Below, one piece after another: positions 1 through 19,601 of a stretch of DNA of 63,859 nt (positions are counted from its first letter, which is position 1; each line of letters starts with the position of its first letter). The translations under genes and the position numbers were made by a program. The notes under the pieces were generated by a model. That model was not told the origin of the DNA and did no database searches. It was given only the letters and a program-made list of their open reading frames with translations. This DNA is from Candidatus Ventrenecus stercoripullorum (lineage in GTDB: Bacteria > Bacillota_I > Bacilli_A > RF39 > UBA660): positions 1 to 63,859 of the forward strand of contig DVGF01000038.1 of assembly GCA_018712835.1 (NCBI GenBank). Direction: 5' to 3'.

Positions 1-1
1 T

Positions 2-1036: not shown

Positions 1037-1064
1037 CTTATACTACTTTTGAAAGGAGTATTTT

Positions 1065-1511: not shown

Positions 1512-2061
1512 ATATGTAAAACACTTGAATTATCCAATCAATATCAAGAAAAAAGATTTAAGAATGGCCAAAAGCCTACTTACCCAATTTGGTGGAGCAA
1601 ACGGAGAACTAGGAGCTGCCTTAAGATATTTTAGCCAAAAATTTTCTATGCCAGATGAAAAAGGAAAAGCATTACTAAATGATATAGCAACCGAAGAACT
1701 AGGTCATTGTGAAATGATTTGTACTATGGTTAGCCAACTAACAAAAGATGCTAGTCTAGAAGAATTAAAAGCTAACGGCTTACAAAGCCTTTATACAGAA
1801 CATGGCAAAGGCATCTATCCATCTGACTCTTTTGGAAATCCATTTACTGTAACATATTTTGCAGTAACAGGAGACGTATTAGCGGATTTATCAGAAGATA
1901 TGGCCGCAGAACAAAAAGCACGAGCAACCTATGAAAATCTAATTAATTTAACTGATGACGAAGATATCATAGGAGTATTACTTTTCTTAAGACAAAGAGA
2001 AATCGTTCATTTCAATCGCTTTAAAGAACTATATGATCATTATAAGAAAAAAGGGTATTAA
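1504..2061 (+). CDS. cotJC: Spore coat protein CotJC (manganese-catalase/ferritin-like family)
   Basis: Motifs LLTQFGGANGELGAALRYFSQ, EELGHCEMI and REIVHFNRF; typical ~185 aa length; follows cotJB. Confidence 0.9.
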   Translation: MFKYVKHLNYPINIKKKDLRMAKSLLTQFGGANGELGAALRYFSQKFSMPDEKGKALLNDIATEELGHCEMICTMVSQLTKDASLEELKANGLQSLYTEHGKGIYPSDSFGNPFTVTYFAVTGDVLADLSEDMAAEQKARATYENLINLTDDEDIIGVLLFLRQREIVHFNRFKELYDHYKKKGY

Positions 2062-2087
2062 GAACGTAACAAAACGTTCTTTTTTTC
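2061..2087 (+). terminator. Rho-independent terminator after cotJC
   Basis: Stem AGAACGT/ACGTTCT with loop aacaaa, followed by a T-run. Confidence 0.6.
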
Positions 2088-2155
2088 TTTTTCAGTTTTC
2101 GACAATTATTGCATAAGTTATATGATATAGTACGAAATAAAAGGAGTTGGTAAAC

Positions 2156-2183
2156 TTGACAAAAATAAAAAATATGTTAGAAT
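2156..2183 (+). promoter_or_regulatory. Sigma-A-type promoter for the Panacea gene pair
   Basis: TTGACA (2156-2161), 16-nt spacer, extended -10 TGtTAGAAT (2175-2183). Confidence 0.5.
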
Positions 2184-2241
2184 TTGTCATTAAACCATCA
2201 CAAAACTATGGTACAATGAAAATGAGAGTAGGTAAGAGAAT

Positions 2242-2754
2242 ATGAGTAAATTGGTTGACAGAAAAAAGAGTGGCATTTTTAGTGCTTTAGATATAGCGAA
2301 ATATTTAAACTATTTACATAATAAAATTTATGGTAAGGATATTTCTCCATTAAAATTACAAAAAGTGTTATTTTTCTTATTTGGAGAATGGGGTGCTTTT
2401 GTTCAAAAAGCTTCAGACGAAAATGATGGAAAAAAATTGAAGGAGTACTCAAAATATCTATTTAATGAAGATTTTCAATCTTGGGTTTACGGTCCTGTCA
2501 TTAATGAGGTATATAAGCACTTTAATAATGAACAATTATCAGAAGAGGAATTATTTAATGATGACCGAAAAAGATATGTTGGAAGTTTTATTAAAGATTT
2601 AGCCCAAGAACTTTTTGAACTTAGTGATTTTAGACTGGTAGAATTAACTCATCAAATGGATTGCTGGAAAAATAAATTTAATCCAGAGCAAGCTTATCAT
2701 AATAATGTTATGGATAAGGAAGAAATAATTAATGAATTTGCAAGGCAAATATAG
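2242..2754 (+). CDS. Panacea (DUF4065) domain protein, SocA/GepA-like putative antitoxin
   Basis: Reads SALDIAKYLNYL...ISPLKLQKVLFFLFGEW...FQSWVYGPVINEVYKHF. This matches the DUF4065 pattern (xxLKLQKLLYYaxg...aWxxGPVxxxvY) as I recall it. Confidence 0.8.
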   Translation: MSKLVDRKKSGIFSALDIAKYLNYLHNKIYGKDISPLKLQKVLFFLFGEWGAFVQKASDENDGKKLKEYSKYLFNEDFQSWVYGPVINEVYKHFNNEQLSEEELFNDDRKRYVGSFIKDLAQELFELSDFRLVELTHQMDCWKNKFNPEQAYHNNVMDKEEIINEFARQI

Positions 2755-3274
2755 TAATACAAAGATAATTAAATACCCAAATAAATATAGAAACATACCA
2801 ACTAATGAGGTAGTTTTTCTTAATAAAAAATCCATAAAAGATGATCGACTTAAATTCACAAATTTTTTGGAAAGAGGGTTATCTTCTTCTAGAAACCAAG
2901 AAATTAAAAATACTATTTGTACTTTAACAGAAAATCCTGAAAAGTTTGACTATGTTGTGAAAAGTAGAGATATTTCCATACAAACACGAGCCGATTTAAA
3001 AAAAGTAAAAAGAGTAGGAGAAATACTTCAATTAAATTTGGAAGTACCCAAATCTAACCAAATAATATTTAAAGGCACACTTTCAGAAAGTAATGAACGA
3101 GGATTTCAATTACTTTTTACGATGGACAATGATAAAAAATACATTTATTTAATAGATTTATATCATTTAATTATACCCAGTAGCACCAATAGAAAAAAGA
3201 AGAGTTTTTCCATACTTTTAGAATATGAAAAGAGAAAAAAATATAAAAAAGATATTCAAGATGTTTTATTTTAA
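2732..3274 (+). CDS. Hypothetical protein, candidate Panacea-associated toxin
   Basis: Overlaps the upstream Panacea gene by 23 nt, so it is probably in the same operon. Lys-rich, no family recognised. The C-terminal GFQLLFTMDNDKKYIYLIDLYH is faintly RelE/ParE-like. Confidence 0.55.
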   Translation: MNLQGKYSNTKIIKYPNKYRNIPTNEVVFLNKKSIKDDRLKFTNFLERGLSSSRNQEIKNTICTLTENPEKFDYVVKSRDISIQTRADLKKVKRVGEILQLNLEVPKSNQIIFKGTLSESNERGFQLLFTMDNDKKYIYLIDLYHLIIPSSTNRKKKSFSILLEYEKRKKYKKDIQDVLF

Positions 3275-3397
3275 ATTGTCTTTTCAAAATAGCTTTTGTA
3301 AAGTCGTTTTTTGCACTTTAAGATTTAAAGAATCAAAATGTTTATAAAAAACTACACATTTTCATAAAAATCCTTTATAATCAAAAAAGGAGGTTTT

Positions 3398-4567
3398 ATG
3401 GAAACTTTTTCTTATGCAATCAAAGTAGCGCTTTTGGCTTTTCCATTAGTTGCTTTATTATTTACAATTCCTTATATAATCCATCAGTACCATAAATATG
3501 GTTCAGTAAGTTCTTATCGTACGATTATCATCTATTCATTTCTTCTATATATGATAACCGCCTATTTCCTAGTCATTTTACCATTACCAAGTATGGAAAG
3601 CGTCTCAAAAATGACTACACCAAGCTATAATCTAATTCCATTTCAATTCATTAGCGAAATATTTTCAGACTCAGGTCTTATTATAAGTGATTTTGCAACC
3701 TATTTTCCAACGCTTAAAAATCCAGTAGTATATGAGTCTTTATTTAACGTTTTATTAACAGTTCCTTTTGGTATCTATTTACATTATTATTTTGAGTTTT
3801 CTTTCAAAAAGACGTTATTTGCAAGCTTTTGCCTAACTTTATTCTTTGAATTAACCCAACTAACAGGCCTATATTTTATATATCCAAGAAGTTACAGAGT
3901 CTTTGATGTAGATGATTTAATACTAAATACCTTAGGTGGAGTTATCGGCTATATCATTGCCTTTATTCCATTAAAGCTCTTACCAACCAGAAAAGAAATC
4001 GATGAAAATTCCCTAGAAAAAGGAGCAAGAGTAGGATTTTTAAAAAGAGTAGTATCCTTTACAATAGATTTCATGATTTATGGTGCATTCCTTTTCGTAG
4101 CCTTATACTTAACACACCATTACCTAGAAGATTGGGTTTCCGTTTTTAGTGTTATCTTTATCCTATGGAGTCTATTATACTATGTTTTCACACCATGCTT
4201 ATTAAAAGGAAAAACCTTAAGCATGAAATTCTTTCATCTAGAATTTACATCATCTAAAAAAGTAACCTGGTTAAGAATATTTGCCTATTATTTTTGGATG
4301 ATAGCATTTTACATCATCTTGCCATTCGGACTAACTTTTCTAGGATATTACCTTTATTATAAACAATATATTACCAGAGTATTTTTTGAATATTTCATCA
4401 TAGTAGTAGGAGCCCTAACCCTCATGATGTATCTAATTGCCTTATTAAAAAGAATATTTAGAATGCCTTTAATATTCGAAAAGATATCTCATATCGAAAT
4501 AATAAGTTCAATACAAGTACTGGTAGAAGAAAGTACAAAAGAAAATAGTGACAAAAATCTAAGCTAA
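3398..4567 (+). CDS. Membrane protein, VanZ-like domain fused to RDD domain
   Basis: VanZ-type motif DVDDLILNTLGGVIGY in the N-terminal half. RDD-type start (GFLKRVVSFTIDFMIYGAF) in the C-terminal half. Many TM helices; RBS AAAGGAGG. Confidence 0.7.
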   Translation: METFSYAIKVALLAFPLVALLFTIPYIIHQYHKYGSVSSYRTIIIYSFLLYMITAYFLVILPLPSMESVSKMTTPSYNLIPFQFISEIFSDSGLIISDFATYFPTLKNPVVYESLFNVLLTVPFGIYLHYYFEFSFKKTLFASFCLTLFFELTQLTGLYFIYPRSYRVFDVDDLILNTLGGVIGYIIAFIPLKLLPTRKEIDENSLEKGARVGFLKRVVSFTIDFMIYGAFLFVALYLTHHYLEDWVSVFSVIFILWSLLYYVFTPCLLKGKTLSMKFFHLEFTSSKKVTWLRIFAYYFWMIAFYIILPFGLTFLGYYLYYKQYITRVFFEYFIIVVGALTLMMYLIALLKRIFRMPLIFEKISHIEIISSIQVLVEESTKENSDKNLS

Positions 4568-4629: not shown

Positions 4630-6114
4630 TCATAAGAATAATTTTCCTACATTCTTATGTTTTTTTAATTCTTTGACAAAACAAGAAGAATGATACCTAG
4701 GAGCAAGTACATATACACTAGATTTTGTTCTAGTAAGCCCTACATAAAAAAGTCTCCGTTCTTCTTCAAAAGGAAAAGGCTGTTCTTTTTTTATGAGAGA
4801 TAAAATTCTTTCATCGGGAATTAAACTAGGAAATCCATATAAAGTATGCTCAAGATTTAAAAGAATAACAACATCACTTTCTAATCCCTTAGATGCATGA
4901 ACCGTTAAAAAACGAACAGAATGATTTGGAAACTTATCAAAGATAATTTGCTTATCGTCCCTTTTAGTATAAGAAAGCTTCTTAGTATATTTTTGCATGT
5001 CAAAGTGGTTACGTCCCAAAATAAAAATCTTCTTATCTTTGGGAATTCGTTGTAGTACTTTTTCTAAGACAGTATCAACATTTTTATAAAATACCAATTG
5101 AATAGGATTACTGAAATGCTTATCACTACAAAGTTCTTTCTTAATTTGATTTGGGTTCTTTTGAATAAACTCTCCTGCAGTCTTAACAAGCTCATCACTA
5201 TTACGGTATGTCCTCTCTAGTTTATAAACTTTAGCTGTTGGATAATACTTTGTAAATTGCAAAAATATCGATAAATCACATCCTGAAAAATGATAGATAG
5301 ATTGATAATCATCTCCTACAACACATAACGAAGCATCAGTAAGTCTGAGTATTTCTTGAATAAATTGAAATCGACATAACGAAGTATCTTGAAATTCATC
5401 GATAATCAACATTTTATAAGGTAAAAATACCGAATGTGTTTTTAAATATTCTGTTGTTTTTAAAATAATATCATCAAAATCCAGAATAGAGGCCGCTTCT
5501 TTATGACTTTCATAAAGCAAATAAATAGCATAGATTAAATAGAGTAAAGGTTCTTTTTTAGCATGAAGTAATATATTTTTTAAATCATTTTGAAAATAGC
5601 CATTGGCTTTACAAAGATTGATAAACGTAATAATTTGCTTTTGAATTCCAGAAAATTTAGGAGAGTTTAGTAAAAAATTCCAAGAGAAGAAAGAAGGGTA
5701 GTCAAAGACTTGATAACATTTTTTTATTAAAAACGCATTTCCAAAACATTTGGCTTGAAAAAACTCTTGAACAGTGTAGGAAAGCAAATCCGGTGGAGCA
5801 ATTTGATAAGAAACATGTTCCTGTTTCAAAATATCTAAAGCAAGTTTATGAAAAGTAAAAACTGCTACATCTACACCACAATTTTTTTGAATGTTTTCCT
5901 TGAGATTGAAAACTGCTTCATTTGTAAAAGATATCATACAAATCTCTTCTGGTTTTAACAATTTGTTTTCTAATAAATATTTCACTTTTCCAATTAAAGT
6001 AAGTGTTTTTCCAGAACCTGCTCCTGCAACAATCATAGAGTATTTTGGATTATCGAAAATAGGCTTTAATTGTTCAGTATCTAAAGAATAATTGTTCACG
6101 ATGATTTTATCCAT
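4630..6114 (-). CDS. UvrD/Rep-family (helicase IV-like) helicase
   Basis: Walker A AGAGSGKTLT, IIDEFQDTS, VVGDDYQSIYHFSG, TYRNS, EERRLFYVGLTRTK. Confidence 0.85.
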   Translation of the reverse strand: MDKIIVNNYSLDTEQLKPIFDNPKYSMIVAGAGSGKTLTLIGKVKYLLENKLLKPEEICMISFTNEAVFNLKENIQKNCGVDVAVFTFHKLALDILKQEHVSYQIAPPDLLSYTVQEFFQAKCFGNAFLIKKCYQVFDYPSFFSWNFLLNSPKFSGIQKQIITFINLCKANGYFQNDLKNILLHAKKEPLLYLIYAIYLLYESHKEAASILDFDDIILKTTEYLKTHSVFLPYKMLIIDEFQDTSLCRFQFIQEILRLTDASLCVVGDDYQSIYHFSGCDLSIFLQFTKYYPTAKVYKLERTYRNSDELVKTAGEFIQKNPNQIKKELCSDKHFSNPIQLVFYKNVDTVLEKVLQRIPKDKKIFILGRNHFDMQKYTKKLSYTKRDDKQIIFDKFPNHSVRFLTVHASKGLESDVVILLNLEHTLYGFPSLIPDERILSLIKKEQPFPFEEERRLFYVGLTRTKSSVYVLAPRYHSSCFVKELKKHKNVGKLFL

Positions 6115-6232: not shown

Positions 6233-7297
6233 ATGCCAACTAATATATTTTTTGAAAATTTAAATAAAGAAGAAATCATCCAAATCCTAAGAATGTTTGA
6301 AGCTCGTGAAGAAAAATTACAACATCAAATAGAAAAACTAAAAAAGAAAATTCATGCCCAAAAAGAAACCGATTTAACACCCCAAGAAAAAGAACAACTA
6401 ATGAAATTCTTACAACTTGTTCCCCTCATGGATCCACAAGAATTAAAAAAAGAAAGTAGAGCATTTTTAGATATCATCTCGGCTGCTTGGCAAGATGAAG
6501 TCTTATTAAGTAACATGCAAAGAAGAATACAAAACCTTCAAAAAGTAAAAGAAGAAATATTAAAAACAGACATTACCTTTCAATCCTTTGGTAAAAAAAA
6601 TTGTCCCCATCGCTTTGTAGAAACAGATACGGGATTAAAATGTATTTGCTGTGGTCATTCTACAGATGAATATCAACTGAGTATTCATGAGTCTCTATAC
6701 TTAGTAGAAGCTGCAAAAATGCAAGGAATATTAATAAGACATGCTTGCATAAAAGAAATTCCATTTTTAGAAAACCTAGCTTATGAACAGAAGATTTTAA
6801 AGGCAGAAGACCAAGATAAAATCAGTGCCAAACAATATGAGAAAGAATTAATTGTGGCCCGAGAACAAGACTTAAGAAAAGTAAAAACGCCATATTTAAA
6901 TACGAAAGAGTCCGTCCGTTTCTTTAAAAAAATTGAAAGCGAGAAAAAAGAAATCGAAGAAACAATCAAAACACTTCAAGCCCAAGCTTTAGTAGATGAT
7001 GAAGTAAAAAGAAACTATGATAGATTATTAGAAGAAAAAAATCTTGCCTTAGAAGAATGTTTAGTAGCAACTTACGAAATATACATTTTAATGGGATATT
7101 CTGTAGAAGAACTATATTATGAAGAACAAAAAGAAGAAAACAAATATGCAGTAGTAAAAGCATATCACAATTTATCACGAAAACAATTTCAAAAAGAAAG
7201 TGGTTATTTCAAAAGCAAAGCTAGAATAGAAAGTTTTACTTGCATGACAGCCAACCCAGAAATAAACCAAATGATATTAGACCTTAGAAGAAAATGA
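6233..7297 (+). CDS. Hypothetical coiled-coil protein with a CxxxxH...CxxC zinc-ribbon-like motif
   Basis: Long Glu/Lys-rich heptad-like stretches plus CPHRFVETDTGLKCICCGH. No family recognised. Confidence 0.6.
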   Translation: MPTNIFFENLNKEEIIQILRMFEAREEKLQHQIEKLKKKIHAQKETDLTPQEKEQLMKFLQLVPLMDPQELKKESRAFLDIISAAWQDEVLLSNMQRRIQNLQKVKEEILKTDITFQSFGKKNCPHRFVETDTGLKCICCGHSTDEYQLSIHESLYLVEAAKMQGILIRHACIKEIPFLENLAYEQKILKAEDQDKISAKQYEKELIVAREQDLRKVKTPYLNTKESVRFFKKIESEKKEIEETIKTLQAQALVDDEVKRNYDRLLEEKNLALEECLVATYEIYILMGYSVEELYYEEQKEENKYAVVKAYHNLSRKQFQKESGYFKSKARIESFTCMTANPEINQMILDLRRK

Positions 7298-7410
7298 GAA
7301 AATTAAGAGTACACCTAATTTTTTTTCATTTCTGCTGTCAACTAAAGTGGGGTTTCTCTATAAAGAAAACCTCTTTTTTGATATAATAAGGTGGTAAAGA
7401 AGGTGATAAC

Positions 7411-8586
7411 ATGCAAAGAAAAACGTATGCATACATAGATGGAAATATTTTAGAAAATAATATAAAAGAAATCAAAAAAAAATATCCAGATTATAAGTAT
7501 TATATAGGTGTTGTAAAAAATAATGCTTATCATCATGGAATGAAATGTGTTCTAGATATGATAAGAGGAGGAATAAATTACTTCGCGGTATCATCATTGG
7601 AAGAAGCTCTTGCTCTAAGAAAATATACTGATTACCCAGTGTTAATATTGGAGCCGATTTCCCTAGAGTTTGTAAGCGATGCCATTAACAACAATATCAC
7701 TCTGACAGTCGAGTCATTAGAATATACCAAAGAACTATTAAAAGAAGATATTTATTCAGAACTAAAAGTGCATCTAGCCATAGACTCTGGGATGAACCGT
7801 TTAGGATTTCAAACAAGAAAAGAACTAGACGAAGCCCTAAAACTATTAAAAGAACACAAAAAAATTGTAGTAGAAGGTTTATTTACACATTTTGCAACAT
7901 CTGGAGTAATGGACCCTCATTGGGATAATCAAGTAAAGAAATTTTTAAATATTACAAAAAATATTGATTTCAAAGAAATTCCAATGGTTCATTTAGGAAG
8001 AAGTTTAACTCTAGTGAACCATCCAAAATTAGAATACGCGAACGCAGTACGCTTAGGAATTATTATGTATGGCTTTTCGCAAAGCAGAAAAGAAGGGACT
8101 TCCCTAAGAAGCAAACTACAAAAACTAAAAAGAAACCATTACCAAAAGAAATATGAATGTAGCAAGACATTCCTAGAAAATGATTTAAAACTAAATACAG
8201 CAATGTCTTTGTATACCGAGGTTATAAGTACAAGAAAAGTTCATGTTGGTGATGTTGTAGGGTACAACGCCTATCCTATAAAAGAAGACGGCTACATTTT
8301 AACACTACCAGTGGGTTATGCCGATGGAGTAACCAAAGATTATAAAGAAGTAGCCATTGAAAGTAAACGTTACAAAATCGTATCAGATTGTATGGACATG
8401 ATTATGGTTTACTCAGAAACACCCATCAAAATTGGTACAAAAGTAGAAATATTTGGTCGTACCATTCCAATTTCTAGTGTAACAAGACGTCTTGGATTAA
8501 ATAGCTATCATTTATTCAACCAAATTAGTGACCGTGTCGTCCGTGTCCATCGAAGTAATGATATCGAAGAAGAAATCACATATTAA
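7411..8586 (+). CDS. alr: Alanine racemase-family PLP enzyme
   Basis: PLP-lysine motif GVVKNNAYHHG, DSGMNRLGF, VGYNAY...LPVGYADG. Confidence 0.85.
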   Translation: MQRKTYAYIDGNILENNIKEIKKKYPDYKYYIGVVKNNAYHHGMKCVLDMIRGGINYFAVSSLEEALALRKYTDYPVLILEPISLEFVSDAINNNITLTVESLEYTKELLKEDIYSELKVHLAIDSGMNRLGFQTRKELDEALKLLKEHKKIVVEGLFTHFATSGVMDPHWDNQVKKFLNITKNIDFKEIPMVHLGRSLTLVNHPKLEYANAVRLGIIMYGFSQSRKEGTSLRSKLQKLKRNHYQKKYECSKTFLENDLKLNTAMSLYTEVISTRKVHVGDVVGYNAYPIKEDGYILTLPVGYADGVTKDYKEVAIESKRYKIVSDCMDMIMVYSETPIKIGTKVEIFGRTIPISSVTRRLGLNSYHLFNQISDRVVRVHRSNDIEEEITY

Positions 8587-9871: not shown

Positions 9872-11713
9872 ATGTGCGGAATTGTAGGGTTTATAGACCA
9901 AAAAAAGAAAAAAGAAAAAACAGAAATTATTAAAAACATGGCAGACATGATAAAACACCGTGGACCAGATGGAGAAGGATACTTTGTAAATGACAAGGTA
10001 GCCTTAGGTCATAGAAGACTATCTATTATAGATGTAGAAGGTGGTTCTCAACCAATTTATAATGCTGATAAATCTTTAGTCATTATCTTTAATGGAGAAA
10101 TATACAATTATCAAAGCTTAAAAGAAGAGCTAAAAGGAAAAGGGTATAAATTTAAAACCAAAACAGATACGGAAGTCATTTTACATGGTTATGATGCATG
10201 GAAAGACAAACTCTACGAAAAACTAAGAGGAATGTTTTCCTTTGTAATTTATGACAAAAAAAACGATGAGCTAATCGGGGCCAGAGACCATTTTGGAATG
10301 AAACCATTCTACTATTACTATAAAGATGATGTTTTCATGTTTGCATCTGAAATAAAATCATTTCTAGCACACCCAGATTTTGAAAAAGAAGTAAACAAAG
10401 ATGCCTTAAAAATGTACTTGATTTTCCAATATTCTGTAAAAGAAGAAACATTCTTTAAAAATGTTTATAAACTAAAACCAGGTCATTATTTCCATTACAA
10501 AAACGGCAAATTGAAAGTAAAACCTTATTTTGAAGTTTCATTTGATAAAAACAAGAAAAAAAGCTTTGAAAGAATGGAAAGCGAACTTACCAATGTACTA
10601 GAAAGTTCTATCTATTACCATCAAACAACCAGTGATGTAGAGGTCGGAGCATACCTTTCTGGAGGAGTAGACTCATCATACGTTGTAAGTGTTGCCAAAC
10701 CAGATAAAACTTTTTCTGTTGGCTTCTCTTATGAAGGCTTTGATGAAACAGATTATGCCAAAGATTTATCAAAAATGTTAAAAATCACAAACTTTCGGGA
10801 AAAAATCAGCCCAGAAGATTTCTTTGATGCCTTACCAAAAGTAGAATGGCACACGGATGAACCACACGCTAATCTATCTACTGTACCTTTATATTTCTTA
10901 TCAGAATTAACAAGAAAACAAGTAAAAGTAGCGCTAGCTGGAGAAGGTTCTGATGAAATGTTTGGTGGCTATAACGAGTACAATGACCCGCTTGCATTAA
11001 GAATGTATTTGAAAGTTCCGTTATTCATTAGAAGAGGAATAAGAAATATCTGCAAACATCTGCCACATTTTCCAGGAAGAAATACCTTAGTGAAATATGG
11101 CCTTCCATTTAACGAAAGATATATTGGCCATGGCACATTCATGGAAGAGTGGGAAGCCAATAAAATACTAGCAGATGACTTAAAAAATGATGAAACGATT
11201 GCAAGTATTCTAGAACCATACTATAAAAAGGTGGAGAAAGAACCAGAACTTACCAAAAAAATGTTCATTGATTTCCATTTTTGGTTACCACAAGACATTC
11301 TTTTGAAAGCAGATAAAATGAGCATGTCGCATTCTATAGAGCTAAGAACTCCATTAATGGATATCGAAGTATTCAATTATGCACGTACACTTCCGAATAA
11401 ATTTCTTTTAAAAGACAAACAAACAAAATATATTTTTAGACGTATTAGTGAACATAAAATTCCAGAAGAGTGGTCAAAAAGAAGAAAATGTGGATTTCCA
11501 GTTCCATTTTCCAAATGGATCCGCGAAGAAAAATTTTATCAAAAAGTTCATGATGCTTTCAATTTATCATTCGTTCCAGAATTTTTTGACCAAAAATATA
11601 TCAACGAACTATTAGAAAATCACTATCACAAAAAAGAAAATAATGGTCGAAAAATATACAATATTTACTGTTTTATTGTCTGGTATCAACAATATTTTAA
11701 AAATTTTGAATAA
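9872..11713 (+). CDS. asnB: Asparagine synthase (glutamine-hydrolysing) family amidotransferase
   Basis: The start was moved to the ATG preceded by AGGAGG, which gives the obligatory N-terminal MCGIVGF nucleophile. PP-loop SGGVDSS is present. The track start at 9800 adds 24 non-homologous residues. Confidence 0.9.
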   Translation: MCGIVGFIDQKKKKEKTEIIKNMADMIKHRGPDGEGYFVNDKVALGHRRLSIIDVEGGSQPIYNADKSLVIIFNGEIYNYQSLKEELKGKGYKFKTKTDTEVILHGYDAWKDKLYEKLRGMFSFVIYDKKNDELIGARDHFGMKPFYYYYKDDVFMFASEIKSFLAHPDFEKEVNKDALKMYLIFQYSVKEETFFKNVYKLKPGHYFHYKNGKLKVKPYFEVSFDKNKKKSFERMESELTNVLESSIYYHQTTSDVEVGAYLSGGVDSSYVVSVAKPDKTFSVGFSYEGFDETDYAKDLSKMLKITNFREKISPEDFFDALPKVEWHTDEPHANLSTVPLYFLSELTRKQVKVALAGEGSDEMFGGYNEYNDPLALRMYLKVPLFIRRGIRNICKHLPHFPGRNTLVKYGLPFNERYIGHGTFMEEWEANKILADDLKNDETIASILEPYYKKVEKEPELTKKMFIDFHFWLPQDILLKADKMSMSHSIELRTPLMDIEVFNYARTLPNKFLLKDKQTKYIFRRISEHKIPEEWSKRRKCGFPVPFSKWIREEKFYQKVHDAFNLSFVPEFFDQKYINELLENHYHKKENNGRKIYNIYCFIVWYQQYFKNFE

Positions 11714-11739
11714 AATTAATAAAAAATGAAAAATTACAA

Positions 11740-11768
11740 TTGACATTAACCACCAATTTTGGTAATAT
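11740..11768 (+). promoter_or_regulatory. Promoter of the tRNA Val-Thr-Tyr-Gln-Lys operon
   Basis: TTGACA (11740-45), 17-nt spacer ending in TGg, TAATAT (11763-68). Confidence 0.6.
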
Positions 11769-11787
11769 TTTAAGTGTCAATTGAAAC

Positions 11788-11864
11788 GGGCGTTTAGCTC
11801 AGTTGGTTAGAGCATCTGCCTTACAAGCAGAGGGTCTGCGGTTCGAGTCCGTAAACGCCCACCA
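11788..11864 (+). tRNA. tRNA-Val(UAC)
   Basis: Cloverleaf GGGCGTT..AACGCCC, anticodon loop CTTACAA, T-loop TTCGAGT, encoded CCA. Confidence 0.95.
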
Positions 11865-11911
11865 TTATTTTTTTTGCCGAAATAGCGTAATTGGTAGCGC
11901 AACTGACTTGT

Positions 11912-12541
11912 GGGATAGAAGCCTAGTGCTTGTTGAACTATCTTGCACCTATAATTAGAAATGATTATAGTGGACGTCGCTAATTCGGGGAAAGCTAAGT
12001 AAACTGAAGGGGGATTATGGATTGCAAAAATTGTGGTAAACCATTAAAAAGAGGTAAAAGCTATTGTAGTAATGCTTGCCAACATCATTATGAATATAAA
12101 GAATATATTTATAAATGGAAAAATGGTTTAGCCAATGGCATGAAAGGAAAATATCAAGTATCCAATCACGTACGGCATTACTTATATGAAAAATATAATT
12201 ATCGCTGTGCATTATGTGGATGGAGCAAAATAAATCCTTTTAGCAATATTATTCCATTGGAAATTGAGCATATTGATGGCAATTATCTAAACAATTCAGA
12301 ATCCAATTTAACACTTTTATGTCCGAACTGTCATTCATTGGCTGCAACTTATAAAGGTGCAAATAGAGGAAATGGTAGAAAAGACAGAAAAAGATACAGT
12401 TTATATGCCAATCCCGAGCTAAAGGAAAATCCTTGAGTGTAGAGACTTTATACGACGAACCTAAGTCAACAATAAATTGATATGGTTAAGAGAAAGTCCA
12501 GACTACAAACACATTGTGGTAGTGAAAACTATAGTAGTACG
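11912..12541 (+). mobile_element. Group I intron (IC3-like) with embedded homing-endonuclease ORF
   Basis: It follows an exon U and ends in G. TAATTCGGGGAAAGCTAAG (11981-11999) resembles the P4/P5 core of the Azoarcus tRNA intron. CCAGACTACA (12498-12507) and AAACTATAGTAG (12526-12537) resemble the R and S/P7 elements. Confidence 0.8.
12017..12436 (+). CDS. HNH homing endonuclease (intron-encoded)
   Basis: N-terminal Cys cluster CKNCGKPL...CSNAC. HNH core LEIEHIDGNYLNNSESNLTLLCPNCHS. Strong RBS AAGGGGGA. Confidence 0.85.
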   Translation: MDCKNCGKPLKRGKSYCSNACQHHYEYKEYIYKWKNGLANGMKGKYQVSNHVRHYLYEKYNYRCALCGWSKINPFSNIIPLEIEHIDGNYLNNSESNLTLLCPNCHSLAATYKGANRGNGRKDRKRYSLYANPELKENP

Positions 12542-12589
12542 AATCAGTGGGTTGGGGGTTCGAGTCCCTCTTTCGGCACCATTTTTATT

Positions 12590-12673
12590 GGAGGGATAGC
12601 GAAGTGGTCAAACGCGGCAGACTGTAAATCTGTTCCTTCGGGTTCCATGGTTCAAATCCATGTCCCTCCACCA
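12590..12673 (+). tRNA. tRNA-Tyr(GUA)
   Basis: Acceptor GGAGGGA/TCCCTCC, loop CTGTAAA, long variable arm, CCA encoded. Confidence 0.95.
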
Positions 12674-12683
12674 TTATATATAT

Positions 12684-12759
12684 TGCCTCGTAGCCAAGTG
12701 GTAAGGCATCAGACTTTGACTCTGACATTCCGGTGGTTCGAACCCACCCGAGGCAGCCA
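12684..12759 (+). tRNA. tRNA-Gln(UUG)
   Basis: Acceptor TGCCTCG/CGAGGCA, loop CTTTGAC, CCA encoded. Confidence 0.95.
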
Positions 12760-12770
12760 TTCTTATTTTT

Positions 12771-12846
12771 GGTTCGCTAGCTCAGTAGGTAGAGCATTTG
12801 ACTTTTAATCAAAGGGTCTCGGGTTCGAATCCCGAGCGAGCCACCA
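12771..12846 (+). tRNA. tRNA-Lys(UUU)
   Basis: Acceptor GGTTCGC/GCGAGCC, loop CTTTTAA, T-loop TTCGAAT, CCA encoded. Confidence 0.95.
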
Positions 12847-12857
12847 GTTTATAAATA

Positions 12858-12883
12858 AACCTCGCATGATCGAGGTTTTTTCT
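12858..12883 (+). terminator. Terminator of the tRNA operon
   Basis: Stem AACCTCG/CGAGGTT followed by TTTTTT. Confidence 0.7.
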
Positions 12884-12945
12884 ATATAAAAATGCTAATA
12901 GAACTATGATCGAAAGAAAAATATACAGAAAATCATCAAAAATAG

Positions 12946-12974
12946 TTGCGTTTTCACACGTTATCGCATATAAT
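12946..12974 (+). promoter_or_regulatory. Promoter of the large ncRNA
   Basis: TTGCGT (12946-51), exactly 17-nt spacer, consensus TATAAT (12969-74). Confidence 0.6.
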
Positions 12975-12980
12975 GCTAAT

Positions 12981-13635
12981 ACATCAACGAAATCTAATAA
13001 ACTTGAAAGTTGCTCTTTGATAATTAGATAATGAACCGTATGAAAAACAAGGAGGCAACCTTGGACGGACTATATCTCGTGCTTATTACCTAATAGAGAG
13101 GTCTTTTAGGGGATTGGAGTAGATAATAATAGCAATATTATTGTCGGGACTTACAAAGTAAGAAAAGAGATATGGGTCGTTTAAAGTATTGGTTTATAAG
13201 GCACAGTCCTAATCGTGACAACCACAAACTTCTTTGGTAGAAAACAAAGAGATTCACTTTTCGACTTACTAGGGTGGCTTCCTAGAGAGAAGAAAAGAAT
13301 TAGCCAATAAGTCATTTTGCAGTTGATGTTTAGTGATAAACTATAAGATTAGAAACTGGTTAAAGTAGCACAAATCTGCAGGCCGAAAACGGTATAAGTG
13401 GTAAAGAAACGTTCAATTCGTTTAAGTTTCCTATGCGTGTGAAATTTGGGAGTGCAAGTCTCCTGTAGTGATCGTAGGTAGTTGAAGATTGAAGGTCGCT
13501 CCTTCATGAGGACAACTACTGGCTAGTGGCTGAAATAAAAAATAAACTGGTATTTTAAATGAATGAGAGAATCATCATTATCTAATTATCAAAAAGCAAT
13601 TATCAAAATACAACCGAAACATGGTTGTTTTTTCT
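12981..13635 (+). ncRNA. Large structured non-coding RNA (candidate ROOL-like ornate RNA; family not verified)
   Basis: The track shows no ORF of 60 aa or more on either strand between 12809 and 13671. The unit has its own promoter and terminator. An 18-bp perfect closing helix joins 13017-13034 and 13575-13592. Nested hairpins include 13122-13145 (10 bp, GCAA tetraloop), 13048-13063, 13270-13286, 13407-13423, 13448-13464 and 13478-13519. Confidence 0.65.
13610..13635 (+). terminator. Terminator of the large ncRNA
   Basis: Stem ACAACC/GGTTGT with loop gaaacat, followed by TTTTTT. Confidence 0.7.
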
Positions 13636-13686
13636 TTCCTTTTTTGAAATTAGTGTTATACTAAATTTAAATTGAGGGAGGGTATC

Positions 13687-15759
13687 ATGAATAAAAGAGA
13701 ATTATCAAAAAACGTTAAATTTTTAATGACACATTTAGAAGAATTATTTCAAGATGAAGACCATTTGTTTGATGAATATGTAAATTATGAAGTGCTACAT
13801 CAATTAGAAAAAGAATTAAACAACGAGTTTCAAGGTTTAATTGCAACAATTAACTACTACAAAGAACAGAAAGATAAAGCAAACGAAAGAAAATATCAAG
13901 AAGCAATAGAAATAGTAAAAGAACAGATGAACCATCTTAGCGCATACAAAAATGATTATCGAAAAAGACTAAAAAAAGAGAAAAGAAAACAAAAAGAGAA
14001 CCAAAAAAAATTACAACAAAAGAAAAGATTCAAACCAATTACCAAAGAACTTCCACCATCTCCTGTATTGGAAGACCTACTTCATTTAAAATCGCCTTAT
14101 ATGAATCAAGCATTTAAAGAGTTCATTATAGATATCAAAAGAAGTAAATATCTAGAAGAATACTACGTCGGATTAAAGTATAGTATGCCTGTAGAATTAG
14201 AAAAACTAATGAATAAAACGAACCATTTAACAGAAGAAGAGAAAGATGAACTAGCGATTGTAATTAGTGATGTTGCAAAAAATAAGAAAAGAAGTCTCGA
14301 TAAAAAAGATATAGGCTTTGAAATAGAACGATACTTTTTACAAGAAGTAATCAAATTACTATCTAACTTAAAATCTCCTGTGTATGAGGATATTCAAGAA
14401 GACACAACGCCATATTATAATATTTTAGTTTCTCTTTCCGAAAAAGATTATAATTACCCTTATATTGAAAGACTTTTAATAGAAAATCCTAAATTCATCA
14501 ATGCCAAAAAGAATGGAAAACCTATTGCGTTATACCTTGTAGAAGAATTTATCTATCATTATCGTCAAAAATTAATGAATCACAAAAATGATTGGATAGA
14601 TCCACAATTCTATAAAAAAATCATTTTATTAATGTGTCAGGAAGGCTTAAGTTTTTCCCAAACAGAAGAAGTAGAATTTTTCCAAAAGCTAGAAGAATTC
14701 AAAGATTACGCAAGTCAAAGAAGATATACAATGCTAAAAGACGTTTTAAAAGATATAGCAGAAATAGAAAATGCTTACGAAAGAAAAATAGAAAGAAATG
14801 AAGAGAAAGAAGAGACAATAAAACAAGAAATTCAACAAATAAAGAATTTTAAAATTCAAGATGCAGCATTATCCTTTATGAGAAAAGGTTATCCATACTA
14901 TGAGGCTTTCCAGTTCTCTAAAATAATGAATTATGCGTTTTCCATCACTTATAGGGATGACGGAAGTATAAACCTTCATATTCATATGTTAGATACATCT
15001 AGTATGATTGAAAAAGACAGTATATTATATGAAGAACTGAAAAAAGGAAAAGCATCACTTCCAAAGATGCATGTGAATAAAATATATCCTGTTATGACAT
15101 TTACATATAGTTTAAATAATAATAGAATAAGTAACTTAGAAGTATCTTCTTCAACAATTTTGATAAATAAAGTATACAAAGAAAAAGACTTAGATCATTA
15201 TCGCAGTATTCCTGAATTAAAGATGATGATTACCTTTCTAAAAAGATTAACACAAGCAAAAAATATTGACACAAATATTCACTATCAAGAAGGTGTAAAT
15301 GATACAATAAATAGTTCTTTAAATATGGATATTACTAAAAGTTTCAAAGAAAATAAAATGCCATTTATCTGGCAAGGACAACTAGAAAATTCTGAAGAAA
15401 TAATTAATGAAAACCATAATGCCGTATGCACAGAACTAATGAATATAAAAAAAGAAGAGGCACATAGTATTTTTAAAATATTAGATGAACCACCAACTGC
15501 CTTTTATACTGTGGAAAGTAAAGGTATATTAGAATTAGATAGCACAAAATTTTTAGGAATGTATTTATTAGAAACAATTCACACCATTCAAAGTGGAACA
15601 TACAATATCGAAGACGTACAAAAAAAATTAAAAGAAATTCTTGATGTTTTAAATAACACAGAAAAAGGTTATTACCCAACTTGTGCAGAACAAGAAGACT
15701 TAAAACTGTTACGAACGATACATCATGAATATAAAAAAGGACAGGAGCAAAATTCATGA
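13687..15759 (+). CDS. Hypothetical protein: N-terminal coiled coil, C-terminal degenerate RNB (RNase II/R)-like region
   Basis: The start was moved to the ATG after GAGGGAGGG. YAFSITYRDDGSINLHIHMLDTSSMIEKDS and PVMTFTYSLNNNRISNLEVSSSTILINKVY resemble the RNB core but lack its acidic catalytic residues. This is a weak call made by eye. Confidence 0.6.
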   Translation: MNKRELSKNVKFLMTHLEELFQDEDHLFDEYVNYEVLHQLEKELNNEFQGLIATINYYKEQKDKANERKYQEAIEIVKEQMNHLSAYKNDYRKRLKKEKRKQKENQKKLQQKKRFKPITKELPPSPVLEDLLHLKSPYMNQAFKEFIIDIKRSKYLEEYYVGLKYSMPVELEKLMNKTNHLTEEEKDELAIVISDVAKNKKRSLDKKDIGFEIERYFLQEVIKLLSNLKSPVYEDIQEDTTPYYNILVSLSEKDYNYPYIERLLIENPKFINAKKNGKPIALYLVEEFIYHYRQKLMNHKNDWIDPQFYKKIILLMCQEGLSFSQTEEVEFFQKLEEFKDYASQRRYTMLKDVLKDIAEIENAYERKIERNEEKEETIKQEIQQIKNFKIQDAALSFMRKGYPYYEAFQFSKIMNYAFSITYRDDGSINLHIHMLDTSSMIEKDSILYEELKKGKASLPKMHVNKIYPVMTFTYSLNNNRISNLEVSSSTILINKVYKEKDLDHYRSIPELKMMITFLKRLTQAKNIDTNIHYQEGVNDTINSSLNMDITKSFKENKMPFIWQGQLENSEEIINENHNAVCTELMNIKKEEAHSIFKILDEPPTAFYTVESKGILELDSTKFLGMYLLETIHTIQSGTYNIEDVQKKLKEILDVLNNTEKGYYPTCAEQEDLKLLRTIHHEYKKGQEQNS

Positions 15760-16682
15760 GTTATGTTTATCATGGAAGTCATACAAGTGGCCTCAAAAAA
15801 TTAATACCACACAAATCGACTCACGGAAATTATGTCTATGCTACAGAAGACAAAACTTTACCCGTGATATTTTCTGGGGTAGCCGGCGATGATTTAGTAT
15901 ATTCTCTATTTCGACAGAACACAGAACCTTGGCAGTTAGTAGAAAGAGTCCCTGAATGTTTCTCTGTAATATATAACACTTCTGCATCTGTTTACACATT
16001 AGAGTCCGATTCCTTTAAAGATATTCATACTGGTTTTACCGAGGTAGTATCCGAAACAGCAGTAGATGTCGTTCAAGAAGAAAAAATTCCTAATGTGTAT
16101 CAAGAACTAGAAAGGTTAGAAAAAGAAGGATTAATTCAAATATATCATTATCCTAAAAGACCAGAATCAATTCCAAAAGACGACTTGGATTTACTAGAGA
16201 GAACTATAGAATACACAAAAATGAATAATGGATCTGTCAACAAATTGACGTTTGAAAGATTATTATATTTACATCCAAACTTGCTAAAAAAAGTAAACGA
16301 AACGTTAAGTGATATGGGCGAACTGACTTATCAAAAAGAGGAACTCACGGATATTTTTGAAAAATTCATCTTTAAACAAATGACAAATCCAGAAAAAGAA
16401 TACTTTTTAAAATCTTCTATGCTACAAATAAGTACAACATATCCAAATCTCACAAATTCTTTGAAGCAAAAAATGGAAATCTTTTCAAAATCAAAAGAAG
16501 AAAAAGTAGAAAGATTGATTACTTTATTATCAAATTCTCTAGAAAATAACCCCGAGGTTTTTAAAATGCAAATGCAATCATTATACTTGAAAGATCCTAG
16601 ATCTTTGAAAGAAATTTCTAGAGAAATACTAGAAAAATATCAATTAACAAAAGCAACCAAAGAGCCAAATATTTTAAAATAA
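15756..16682 (+). CDS. Hypothetical protein (N-terminal YHGS...YVYAT motif)
   Basis: ATGA start/stop overlap with the upstream gene suggests translational coupling. The N-terminus VYHGSHTSGLKKLIP...GNYVYATED...VYTLES is reminiscent of H-Y-E ADP-ribosyltransferase folds. That link is speculative. Confidence 0.6.
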   Translation: MSYVYHGSHTSGLKKLIPHKSTHGNYVYATEDKTLPVIFSGVAGDDLVYSLFRQNTEPWQLVERVPECFSVIYNTSASVYTLESDSFKDIHTGFTEVVSETAVDVVQEEKIPNVYQELERLEKEGLIQIYHYPKRPESIPKDDLDLLERTIEYTKMNNGSVNKLTFERLLYLHPNLLKKVNETLSDMGELTYQKEELTDIFEKFIFKQMTNPEKEYFLKSSMLQISTTYPNLTNSLKQKMEIFSKSKEEKVERLITLLSNSLENNPEVFKMQMQSLYLKDPRSLKEISREILEKYQLTKATKEPNILK

Positions 16683-16776
16683 TATATTTGCCAAAAATTA
16701 CCAATTACAATATCCTTTATTTGACAAAATTTTTAGCTTTTTCTTGTTATAATACTATAGAAAAGAGAAAGTAAAA

Positions 16777-16998
16777 ATGAAAATAGTAGAAGAAAATAAG
16801 AAAAAAATCATTATTTTAGAAACAAATGAAGAAATTGAAGTAAAAACACTAAAAAGAAATCCCATTTCAATTTTCATTAAAGAAAAAGATGGAGCATTAT
16901 TAGTTGATGAAGTATCTGTAAAAAGAATTAAAGAGATTGCATTAGAAGAAGAACAAGTCAAAATTTTAAAAGAATACAATTTCAAAAAAAAGAAATAA
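16777..16998 (+). CDS. Small hypothetical protein (73 aa)
   Basis: Only a weak purine-rich stretch (GAGAAAG) lies upstream of the ATG. Charged sequence of low complexity. The antisense ORF 16755..17039 is probably spurious. Confidence 0.4.
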   Translation: MKIVEENKKKIIILETNEEIEVKTLKRNPISIFIKEKDGALLVDEVSVKRIKEIALEEEQVKILKEYNFKKKK

Positions 16999-17084
16999 AA
17001 AAGTGACAAAATTGTAGGAAAATAATACTTGGAAAACACTAGTATTATTTTTTCAATATGGTATACTTTATCATAGTGATTTAT

Positions 17085-18083
17085 ATGAAAAAAATGAAGT
17101 ATATATTAAAAAGATTAAAAAATTTGGAGTGGCGTCAATTTATAGATGTAGTAAAAAAGATAGCCAAAAAGACAAATCGCTCAAAAATCGTGATTTTCTT
17201 TGACTGTATTTGGTGTGGTTTTCGTTATGGGGCAGGCTACATGGATTATTTTGAATTTGAATTCTATTTACTAAAAGGAAAAGAAAGAAAAACATATCTA
17301 ACTTCTACTATTAATAACAAAATAATCGCAAAATATAATGACAAACAATATACCAAAGTATTTAAAGATAAAATTCTATTTAACCAAACATTCAAAGAAT
17401 ACATACACAGAGACTTTATAGATTTGCAAAAATCTTCTTTTGAAGAATTCCAAACATTCTTGAAAGGGAAAGAAAAAATAATTGGTAAAGTAATTGATGA
17501 ATGTGGTGGTAAAGGAATTAAAATTTATGAACAAAAAGACTATAAAGCAGAAGAATTATACCAAGAGCTAAGAAAAAATAAACAATACTTAGTAGAAGAA
17601 TGCATTACCCAACATGAAAAAATGAATTCCTTATATGCCAAAAGCGTAAACTCTTTAAGAATGATCAGTTTTATTCGTGATGATGGTGAAGTAGAAATAC
17701 TAAATATAGTTTTAAGAATAGGAAATGGCGGCGAAGTAGATAACTTCAGTAGTGGTGGAATGTACACGTTTGTTGGATTAGACGGGAAAGTATTAATCCC
17801 GGCAATAGATGAAAAAGGACATATCTATGAATATCATCCCATTAGCAATACAAAAATTTCAGGGTTCCAAATACCTGATTTTGAAACAGTAATAAAATAT
17901 GTAAAAGTCTTAGCCAAAGTAGAACCACATGTAAGGTATGTAGGATGGGATATTGCAGTTACAAAAGATGGTGTAGATGTGATTGAAGGAAACGAATATT
18001 CTGGAGTCTTCCAAATGAAACCAAGCATTAGTCACAAAAAAGAAGGATTACTTCCACTTTACAAAAAATACATGGATATTTAA
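17085..18083 (+). CDS. Sugar-transfer-associated ATP-grasp family protein
   Basis: N-terminus ILKRLKNLEWRQFIDVVKKIAKK..IFFDCIWCGFRYGAGYMDYFEFEFY, then VEECITQHEKM, NFSSGG and DVIEGN. The start is uncertain (17058, 17085 or 17094). Confidence 0.7.
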   Translation: MKKMKYILKRLKNLEWRQFIDVVKKIAKKTNRSKIVIFFDCIWCGFRYGAGYMDYFEFEFYLLKGKERKTYLTSTINNKIIAKYNDKQYTKVFKDKILFNQTFKEYIHRDFIDLQKSSFEEFQTFLKGKEKIIGKVIDECGGKGIKIYEQKDYKAEELYQELRKNKQYLVEECITQHEKMNSLYAKSVNSLRMISFIRDDGEVEILNIVLRIGNGGEVDNFSSGGMYTFVGLDGKVLIPAIDEKGHIYEYHPISNTKISGFQIPDFETVIKYVKVLAKVEPHVRYVGWDIAVTKDGVDVIEGNEYSGVFQMKPSISHKKEGLLPLYKKYMDI

Positions 18084-18137
18084 AAAATCTATGTATTTTT
18101 AATTTAGCGGAGTATAATAAAAGAGGAGAGTGATAAA

Positions 18138-18608
18138 TTGAAAACGGCAATTATTTACTATTCTTATGGAAATAACACAAGAAGTATCGCCCGAAAAATA
18201 AAAGAAAATATCGATGCAGATTTATACGAGATTGAGCCAGAAATACCGTACACAAAAGACTATAATGCCTTAGTGGATATGGAAGAAGAAAAAATGGACC
18301 AACAAGAAATCGTGCCAATAAAAAAAATGAATATAGATTGGAATAACTACGATAAAGTGATTTTAGGAACATCAGTTTGGTGGTATGCCATTACTCCTCC
18401 AATGAGGTCATTTTTAGAAAAAAACAAAGAAGAATTAAATAAAAAAACTTGTAGAGCATTTATTACAAATGGTGGATGGATAGGACACTCTAAAGAAGAC
18501 ATAGAAAACTATGTTCCTTTAAAAAACTATGTGAATTTAGAATTTGATGAAAACACAATTCGTAGAAATTCTCAAATAGAACTAGAAAATTGGATAAAAA
18601 GTTTATAG
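18138..18608 (+). CDS. Flavodoxin-family protein
   Basis: TTG start after AAGAGGAGAG. Reads KTAIIYYSYGNNTRSIARKI...ILGTSVWWYAITPPMRSFL. Confidence 0.75.
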   Translation: MKTAIIYYSYGNNTRSIARKIKENIDADLYEIEPEIPYTKDYNALVDMEEEKMDQQEIVPIKKMNIDWNNYDKVILGTSVWWYAITPPMRSFLEKNKEELNKKTCRAFITNGGWIGHSKEDIENYVPLKNYVNLEFDENTIRRNSQIELENWIKSL

Positions 18609-18749
18609 AAGATATAGAAAGAAAAACTATATCTTTTTTTATTTTAAAATTACAATTGTTAAGAAAACGGGCGAAAGTTCCAAGTAAAAAAGGTGGAATA
18701 TCACGCAAAGAAAATTTAAAATAAAGATAGAAAGGAGGGTAGGAATTAT

Positions 18750-19292
18750 ATGGGAAATAAAATATTGGAATTAAGAAAACAAAATCATATGTCTCAAGAA
18801 CAATTGGCAGAAAAAATAGGTGTTGCAAGACAAACTATAAGCAAATGGGAACTCGGAGAAACTTCGCCGGATATAGAACAATCAAAAAAATTAGCTCAAA
18901 TATTTCAAGTGAGTTTAGATGAATTAGTGCAAAATGATATAGTATCCAAAAATAATAATAAAATCATATCTACAAAATGGATATTGAACATATTAAAAAT
19001 AATACTGTTAATCATCGTAATTTGCCTTCTTGTACTAGTGGCAATTATATGTTTTAAAGATTACTTCGATGCCCATCCGATTTCAACAGGCAAGAGTATT
19101 ACGTGTCAAATTGATAATCAAGAGTATACTTATGAAGTATGGACAAAATATGAGACTCCAAATATTATCGAAAACTTTTATACAAATGATGAAGAAATAA
19201 ACCTAGATATTACTAGATATAATAGTATAGATAAGATGTTAGAAGATGTAGAAAACTCGGTAATATCGCGTGGTGGAACATGTATACAATAG
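18750..19292 (+). CDS. XRE-family HTH regulator with a C-terminal transmembrane/extracellular part
   Basis: LRKQNHMSQEQLAEKIGVARQTISKWELGETSPD, followed by the TM helix ILKIILLIIVICLLVLVAII. Confidence 0.8.
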   Translation: MGNKILELRKQNHMSQEQLAEKIGVARQTISKWELGETSPDIEQSKKLAQIFQVSLDELVQNDIVSKNNNKIISTKWILNILKIILLIIVICLLVLVAIICFKDYFDAHPISTGKSITCQIDNQEYTYEVWTKYETPNIIENFYTNDEEINLDITRYNSIDKMLEDVENSVISRGGTCIQ

Positions 19293-19352
19293 GAAGCGAA
19301 AGTTAGCACAATTTGTTAATTTTTAAAATTTATCCAAGGGAGTTGCAAGACA

Positions 19353-19379
19353 TAAAAAAATCTCATTATAAAATGAGAT
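19353..19379 (-). terminator. Terminator downstream of the minus-strand tRNA pair
   Basis: Stem ATCTCATT/AATGAGAT (19360-19379), followed on the minus strand by a T-run. Confidence 0.55.
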
Positions 19380-19396
19380 GTATTGTTAAATAAAAA

Positions 19397-19473
19397 TGGT
19401 CGAGAAGACAGGATTTGAACCTGCAACCCCTTGGTCCCAAACCAAGTGCACTACCAAATTGTGCTACTTCTCG
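19397..19473 (-). tRNA. tRNA-Pro(UGG)
   Basis: The reverse complement reads CGAGAAG...CTTGG-TTTGGGA-CCAAG...CTTCTCG-ACCA. Confidence 0.95.
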
Positions 19474-19524
19474 ATTTCCTATAAGTATTATACTCCAAAA
19501 AAATGAAAATGTGAATAATAAAAA

Positions 19525-19601
19525 TGGTGCACCCAAAGGGAGTCGAACCCCTAACCTTTAGATCCGTAGTCTAACGCTCTATCCAATTGCGCTATGGGTG
19601 C
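19525..19601 (-). tRNA. tRNA-Arg(ACG)
   Basis: The reverse complement reads GCACCCA...TTAGA-CTACGGA-TCTAA...TGGGTGC-ACCA. Confidence 0.93.

Follow-up and report, generated by a model that had tools for sequence, protein, structure and literature searches.

ROOL RNAs are, to our knowledge, among the few natural RNAs that build a closed, protein-free cage larger than the ribosome, and we know of no function for the family. This study concerns a ROOL copy at 13012-13594 on the forward strand of contig DVGF01000038.1, a stretch of 63,859 nucleotides (nt) that is referred to as the window throughout. The family (RF03087 in Rfam) was described by Weinberg et al. 2017 with three pseudoknots or tertiary pairings, and the same authors noted copies that lie outside prophages and near transfer RNAs (tRNAs) (PMC5737381). 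Cryo-electron microscopy (cryo-EM) structures are available for ROOLs from env-120 (a rumen sample), E. faecalis, L. salivarius, and Firmicutes CAG:227 (PMC12286853, PMC12990946, PMC12515178). The monomers are flat and assemble without protein into a hollow particle ~28 nm across, which is a D4 octamer for env-120, E. faecalis, and Firmicutes CAG:227 and a D3 hexamer for L. salivarius, and which is held together by kissing loops and A-minor contacts (PMC12286853, PMC12990946, PMC12515178). In the cryo-EM model, the pseudoknots are P10 and P13, and a variable linker region is disordered in the solved cages and points into the cavity (PMC12286853). The evidence for assembly of these ROOLs comes from cryo-EM and mass photometry (PMC12286853, PMC12990946). 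The L. salivarius RNA exceeds 16S rRNA in abundance, is highly stable, and is dispensable (PMC5643018).

The copy in the window shares with the family its length, the full consensus architecture, the position of the linker, the adjacency to tRNA genes, and a Firmicute host. It differs from known ROOLs in belonging to an uncultured, spore-forming member of the Bacilli rather than to Lactobacillales, in lacking one small hairpin, and in having its tRNAs upstream, behind a terminator, with no tRNA after it. The L. salivarius ROOL, a long noncoding RNA, is likewise a stand-alone gene in a bacterial replicon with a patchy distribution across strains or lineages, but it is carried by a megaplasmid and its abundance was shown by experiment (PMC5643018), whereas the window copy is chromosomal. 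Phage-borne ROOLs (loci L006-L125, L146, and L085) have the same fold and up to 84.7% identity to the window copy; most of them are directly followed by a tRNA, whereas the window copy comes after tRNAs, behind their terminator, and has a terminator of its own. GOLLD resembles ROOL as a large ornate RNA of phages and bacteria that is found near tRNA genes and forms RNA-only cages (PMC12286853), but it differs in sequence and secondary structure, it assembles as a 14-mer, and the window holds no GOLLD match. The ROOL family is already described and curated, and the additions made here are modest, namely, the host lineage and the stand-alone arrangement.

The Rfam covariance models were run over the whole window, and a further local search covered 11500-14000 with E values up to 1. 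In the whole-window scan, RF03087 matched 13012-13594 on the forward strand from end to end (model positions 1-574 of 574) with 180.7 bits (E 6.6e-39), almost twice the gathering score of 99.1 bits, and the local search returned the same match (E 2.6e-40). The match is untruncated, and the core of 583 nt compares with a family mean of 581 nt. A first-pass annotation of the window, made from the sequence by a model, had proposed a ROOL-like giant noncoding RNA here, to be checked against the ROOL, GOLLD, OLE, HEARO, and raiA models, and had seen no signatures of RNase P, transfer-messenger RNA, 6S, or SRP. The proposal is borne out: ROOL and ten tRNAs are the only Rfam matches in the window, none of the other eight families reached its gathering score anywhere in it, and no other relevant Rfam family appeared within 11500-14000 at E up to 1. 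The element at 13012-13594 is a full-length ROOL family RNA, and the annotation's fallback, an undescribed large RNA, becomes superfluous given this match.

The parsed covariance-model alignment indicates how much of the consensus structure is kept. Both bases are present for 149 of the 159 consensus pairs, and 131 of these 149 (88%) are canonical. The ten deleted pairs belong mostly to a single small hairpin around model positions 452-461, which is also missing in 12 of the 13 other ROOLs aligned in this study. When the RNA was folded and compared with shuffles, its minimum free energy was -166.3 kcal/mol, with a z score of -6.13 for the forward strand vs. -3.70 for the reverse strand.

As for the architecture, the 583-nt core consists of an 18-bp closing helix, nested multi-stem junctions, and a variable linker of about 60 nt. 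The closing helix, P1, is formed by TTGATAATTAGATAATGA at 13017-13034 and its exact reverse complement at 13575-13592, as had been proposed; these two sites are the only matches to the 18-mer helix in the window, even when two mismatches are allowed, and 0.08 would be expected by chance. Most of the local helices read earlier from the letters recur in the covariance-model alignment, i.e., CAAGG/CCTTG at 13048-52/13059-63, the 10-bp stem with a GCAA loop at 13122-13145, and the two-tier hairpin at 13478-13519, in which GTAGTTG/CAACTAC encloses TGAAGG/CCTTCA and the GUCGCU loop core conserved in the family lies at 13495-13500. The region read as GGGAG/CTCCT appears in the alignment as GGAG/TCCT at 13449-52/13461-64. 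The CTAGG/CCTAG helix is real, with coordinates one base lower than first given (13269-13273/13281-13285), and AAACG/CGTTT at 13407-13423 is present but lies outside the model helices, in the family's variable linker. This linker (13374-13434) falls on the model's long unpaired loop, and within it lie a CCG/CGG and an AAACG/CGTTT hairpin, both small and local. No other stretch differs as much between the window and the related copy L127, and among 14 ROOLs the linker could not be aligned. The structure line given by cmscan holds nested pairs only, and a scan of our own for covarying unpaired columns (pseudoknots, kissing loops) was too permissive and noisy for any pairing to be called.

For the analysis of covariation, ROOLs were collected with a degenerate pattern derived from three conserved 3' motifs, which yielded at least 120 IMG/VR loci (L006-L125). 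An iterative nhmmer alignment of all 110 ROOLs was mostly partial, and the alignment used here (A3) contains 14 sequences, namely, the window copy, three copies from related genomes, and the ten distinct viral ROOLs that nhmmer had aligned end to end. The Rfam structure was projected onto A3, with two hairpin registers corrected to the pairing given by the first-pass annotation, and the controls consisted of pairing partners slid by 1-3 columns and of 500 shuffles. Standard pairs occupy 85.2% of the pair cells, vs. 40-46% when partners are slid; 85 of 146 pairs are changed on both sides, vs. 26-48; and the covariation score is 0.469, vs. at most 0.13. None of the 500 shuffles attains any of the observed values. 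Changes on both sides occur in P1 (7 of 16 modelled pairs, helix 1), in the long-range helix 13182-89/13550-57, and in nearly every hairpin. In the two-tier hairpin (helices 24 and 25), 100% and 83% of the cells are paired and 5 and 6 pairs, respectively, are changed on both sides. The covariation that the first-pass annotation had asked for in homologues of its helices is thus present.

Pairwise comparisons with the window copy give the same picture at several distances. Pairs changed on both sides are still paired in 8 cases and broken in none for L146 (84.7% identity), still paired in 24 and broken in 2 for L085 (74%), and still paired in 31 and broken in 5 for L144 (69%). Even inside the host lineage (94-99% identity), compensatory swaps are seen, e.g., L005 and L127 carry A-U to G-C and G-C to A-U swaps in the TGAAGG/CCTTCA helix and an A-U to U-A swap in the CTAGG/CCTAG helix. 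The structure is under selection, in several related species. It had also been considered that the ROOL might be exceptionally conserved; this idea was dropped, since the flanking genes are equally conserved (about 90-94% DNA identity) and it is the gene directly downstream, encoding a protein of 690 amino acids (aa), that has diverged unusually far.

The same substitutions bear on whether the region is a degraded protein-coding gene or encodes small proteins. Open reading frames (ORFs) of 31-52 aa do exist on both strands, which is what such a reading can draw on. However, the longest ORF within 12809-13671 has 52 aa and none reaches 60 aa, as had been stated before; the covariance model is matched over its full length; and the substitutions track base pairing rather than codons. 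We give a coding origin next to no credence.

The ROOL core is embedded in what is predicted from the DNA to be an independent gene, with terminators on both sides and its own promoter. Upstream, the tRNA operon ends in a terminator at 12857-12886 (stem 12857-12878 with 8 pairs, followed by a T run), which is the tRNA-Lys terminator noted earlier and which is conserved in L005, L133, L127, and L126. It is followed by a putative sigma-70-type promoter at 12946-12974, with a -35 element TTGCGT (12946-12951), a spacing of 17 nt, and a -10 element TATAAT (12969-12974). In the four copies of the lineage, the -10 element is invariant and the -35 element reads TTGCGT or TTGCGG. The promoter had been called near-consensus; this fits the -10 element and the spacing, but not the -35 element, and the site went unlisted by the promoter scan because the latter matches at three of six positions only. 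At the other end, an intrinsic terminator lies at 13610-13634 (stem 13610-13628 with 7 pairs, 3 of them G-C, then TTTTTT), which agrees with the earlier call and is kept in L005, L133, and L127. A transcript of about 650 nt would start near 12981 and end at this terminator. The span 12946-13635 put forward in the first-pass annotation therefore stands as a transcription unit but not as the extent of the ROOL, whose modelled core 13012-13594 lies inside it; the independence of the unit, which had also been proposed, agrees with the terminators on both sides and with the conservation of the -10 element and the ROOL terminator.

The 690-aa gene (13687-15759, forward strand) starts with an ATG at 13687, directly downstream of the ROOL. 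On the same strand, the ROOL is directly upstream of this gene in the window, L133, L127, and L137, and the product resembles an RNA-binding protein of the RNB fold, so that the ROOL could be imagined as a long structured 5' leader that regulates the gene in cis. Against this speaks, first, the intrinsic terminator between the two. Furthermore, the gene is preceded by TGTTATACT at 13654-13662 and then by a Shine-Dalgarno sequence, and both are conserved even in L126, where the gene occurs without a ROOL. Around distant homologues of the gene (L138-L143), no ROOL occurs within 10 kb, a homologue is encoded in none of 124 other ROOL loci, and elsewhere tRNAs or unrelated genes come after ROOLs. 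A leader function is therefore highly improbable.

The 690-aa protein matched no Pfam, PHROG, NCBIfam, or PADLOC family, and a sequence search against the PDB gave no name. Its AlphaFold model has a mean predicted local distance difference test score (pLDDT) of 61.8, with values of 75-94 over residues 240-520. In a Foldseek comparison of this model with the PDB, the 42 best matches were all RNase II, RNase R, Rrp44, Dis3L2, or Ssd1 (best E 4.7e-6). With hhalign, NYAFSI...LHIHMLDTS was aligned to DDAISI...VHIADVS of a genuine RNase R from a related metagenome-assembled genome (MAG) (E 0.019), and the motif NYAFSI...HIH.LD.S is invariant in the 690-aa protein. The two comparisons together point to an RNB fold that lacks the catalytic aspartates, and the protein is probably an RNB-fold pseudonuclease with NY in place of the catalytic DD motif. 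The gene evolves fast, with 57-76% aa identity where its flanks have ~90-95% DNA identity. Given that a homologue is found at none of the 124 other ROOL loci and that L126 has the gene but no ROOL, a functional link between the protein and the ROOL is only a lead.

Related genomes contain the ROOL at the same locus in at least three lineages (L133, L127, and L137) and lack it in one (L126), which provides the search of relatives that had been recommended. The copies in L133 and L127 (the latter on the same contig as L136, BRZ_IE bin60) score 170 and 164 bits, respectively, and L137 (Candidatus Ventrenecus avicola) contains the 3' part of the ROOL before the contig ends. In L126, tRNA-Gln and tRNA-Lys are followed after ~150 nt by a 686-aa gene, and at 229-392 about 36 unrelated bases take the place of the ~700-nt ROOL unit. 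The alignment of the L126 junction gave no clear answer on loss vs. gain of the ROOL.

Taken together, a stand-alone ROOL RNA gene at 12946-13634 is very probably the best explanation of the region. Some points weigh against it or against parts of it. The -35 element is weak, with a match to TTGACA at three of six positions, and the promoter, the transcript ends, and the abundance of the RNA are predictions. Compared with L127, the ROOL has ~89-90% identity, the same as the flanking genes, so that its conservation as such is not exceptional. Both L005 and L127 are without the outermost G-C pair beside the conserved GUCGCU loop. L126 is without a ROOL entirely, and window positions 12893-13627 have no counterpart there, an absence that fits with the ROOL being dispensable. 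Cage formation and its stoichiometry would follow here by homology. In addition, L127 has a 5-nt deletion within the 3' strand of P1, where 8 + 5 bp of the helix remain.

The close relatives also connect the locus to phages. The L127 sequence becomes homologous to the window precisely with the final 14 nt of tRNA-Lys, CGAGCGAGCCACCA (L127 3524-3537), and upstream of this fragment (1-3540) lie an M23/CW_7 endolysin and other genes with PHROG matches. As these genes abut the 14-nt fragment, a prophage sits in tRNA-Lys with the ROOL outside it; the end of the L127 prophage lies between the tRNA cluster and the ROOL. This makes tRNA-Lys an integration site in the genus, ~165 nt from the ROOL core. 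Outside the lineage, the closest ROOLs are L146 and L085, both of which lie in phage-like contigs. The L146 contig encodes RusA, exonucleases, a small terminase subunit, a DUF2828/DUF7788 protein, and an invertase, its ROOL is followed by an intrinsic terminator as in the window copy, and the metagenome it comes from also holds a copy of the window species. In L085, an IMG/VR contig, the ROOL is followed by tRNA-Gln and tRNA-Ile. The window copy probably derives from a phage copy. As a separate observation on L146, the ROOL (4987-5600, reverse strand) has the gene of the 439-aa DUF2828/DUF7788 protein (6400-7719, reverse strand) ~800 nt upstream, and this protein is assigned to PHROG 850 ("RNA-binding protein").

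Among the 120 viral loci listed, 93 have a tRNA within 1 kb of the ROOL, and in 82 of these 93 the nearest one is downstream on the same strand. At 73 of the 120 loci, a tRNA on the same strand starts at most 400 nt past the conserved 3' motif (median 93 nt), and a T5 run separates it from the ROOL in only 6 of the 73. The short distances on the same strand and the few T5 runs suggest that phage ROOLs are co-transcribed with the tRNAs that follow them. At these 73 loci, the tRNA is most often tRNA-Gln(UUG) or tRNA-Ser(GCU), and some distances are 44-55 nt; with the shortest, the tRNA would fall at or within the stretch where the 3' strand of the closing helix is expected.

A phage origin raises the question of whether the window copy is a nonfunctional, decaying relic that a phage-borne ROOL left next to the tRNA-Lys integration site. 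The use of this tRNA for integration in L127, the phage-like contigs of the nearest outside relatives (84.7% and 74% identity), the absence of the gene in L126, and a conservation no better than that of the flanks would all suit a relic. Decay, however, is at odds with a full-length match that keeps 88% of the consensus pairs intact, with substitutions within the lineage that are compensatory and not random, with the retention of the -10 hexamer and the terminator in all four copies, and with the lack of an att duplicate or a phage gene nearby in the window, and a relic thus seems very unlikely. Another reading is that the ROOL has been domesticated as a host gene, i.e., that it has its own transcription, is uncoupled from phage tRNAs, is selected across species, and works with the 690-aa RNB-like protein. 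This full combination is improbable.

The genes around the ROOL place it in a bacterial chromosome. Its neighbours encode VanZ, a UvrD helicase, alanine racemase (Alr), asparagine synthase (AsnB), an ATP-grasp enzyme, and a flavodoxin, as well as a phosphoketolase (XFP), an HD hydrolase, and M16 peptidases, and further along the window are genes for S16, KhpA, EngA, HU, CdsA, RseP, and TrpS and for the sporulation proteins SpoIVA, SpoVIF, and CotE. The nearest named genome is the Candidatus Ventrenecus avicola MAG, with 94.5% DNA identity over 16688-19443. The host belongs to an uncultured lineage of spore-forming Bacilli near Candidatus Ventrenecus, which makes the Firmicute host assumed before more specific. 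A DNA similarity search of the ROOL unit found no match in the phage collection, and the 11-kb neighbourhood gave only tRNA matches in the phage and plasmid collections. Neither an integrase nor a phage structural gene occurs in the window, nor does the tRNA-Lys att core recur there, and PADLOC returned for the neighbours only generic helix-turn-helix matches and one weak match. The locus is chromosomal and outside a prophage.

Several other features of the window were recorded. Six more tRNA genes occur singly or in small groups at 19397-19601 (reverse strand), 36836-37626 (forward strand), and 57668-57744 (reverse strand). Such a scatter is unusual and had raised the idea of a large phage or plasmid, but the genes for housekeeping and sporulation point to a chromosome. 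At ~46.5 kb (46000-47000), the GC skew turns from positive to negative and the genes switch from the forward to the reverse strand, a pattern expected at a replication terminus; the dif sequence of B. subtilis is absent from the window within 3 mismatches. A 308-aa ORF at 15756-16682 (forward strand) overlaps the 690-aa gene at its stop codon (ATGA) and has no family match. The corresponding position in L133, L127, L126, and L137 lacks it, with homology setting in again at ~16675-16691, and it is an insertion specific to the window species.

The tRNA operon upstream of the ROOL comprises Val, Thr (split by an intron-like insert), Tyr, Gln, and Lys, and its tRNA-Lys ends at 12846, 165 nt before the ROOL core. 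The tRNA-Thr(UGU) gene (11876-12592, forward strand) went undetected by both ARAGORN and Rfam. An insert of 630 nt (11912-12541) interrupts it in the anticodon loop, between positions 36 and 37; the last base of the 5' exon is U and that of the insert is G. The insert has an ORF for a 139-aa HNH endonuclease at 12017-12436 and is precisely absent in L133, where tRNA-Thr is intact. By eye, it shows what we take to be P4- and P7-like elements of a group I core, with presumed P, Q, R, and S elements at 11981-11995, 12410-12419, 12497-12508, and 12519-12523; the Rfam intron models gave no group I match to the insert. Its 3' core gave short blastn matches to phage genomes, and one of these matches lies under a tRNA-Arg annotation. 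The insert has the appearance of a mobile group I intron.

By homology to the solved ROOLs, a nanocage is expected for the window copy too. Its monomer would be flat and would self-assemble without protein, and kissing loops and A-minor contacts would hold a hollow dihedral octamer or hexamer of ~28 nm with the linker inside. By this analogy, formation of an RNA-only cage by this ROOL is likely. What such a particle would do is a more doubtful matter; our best guess, which is less likely than not, is a stable and abundant RNA that serves as a scaffold or a container and has ties to the biology of tRNAs or phages. If the ROOL did work with the 690-aa protein as a domesticated host gene, this would provide the first candidate for a protein partner of a ROOL cage, one that might, e.g., bind its 3' end. 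Within the lineage, the compensatory changes are datable. The window copy provides comparative material as a chromosomal, stand-alone ROOL that is present in some close relatives and absent in another, with a near relative in a phage-like contig, and contrasts with the phage copies could help to separate the service of ROOL to the phage from its service to the cell.

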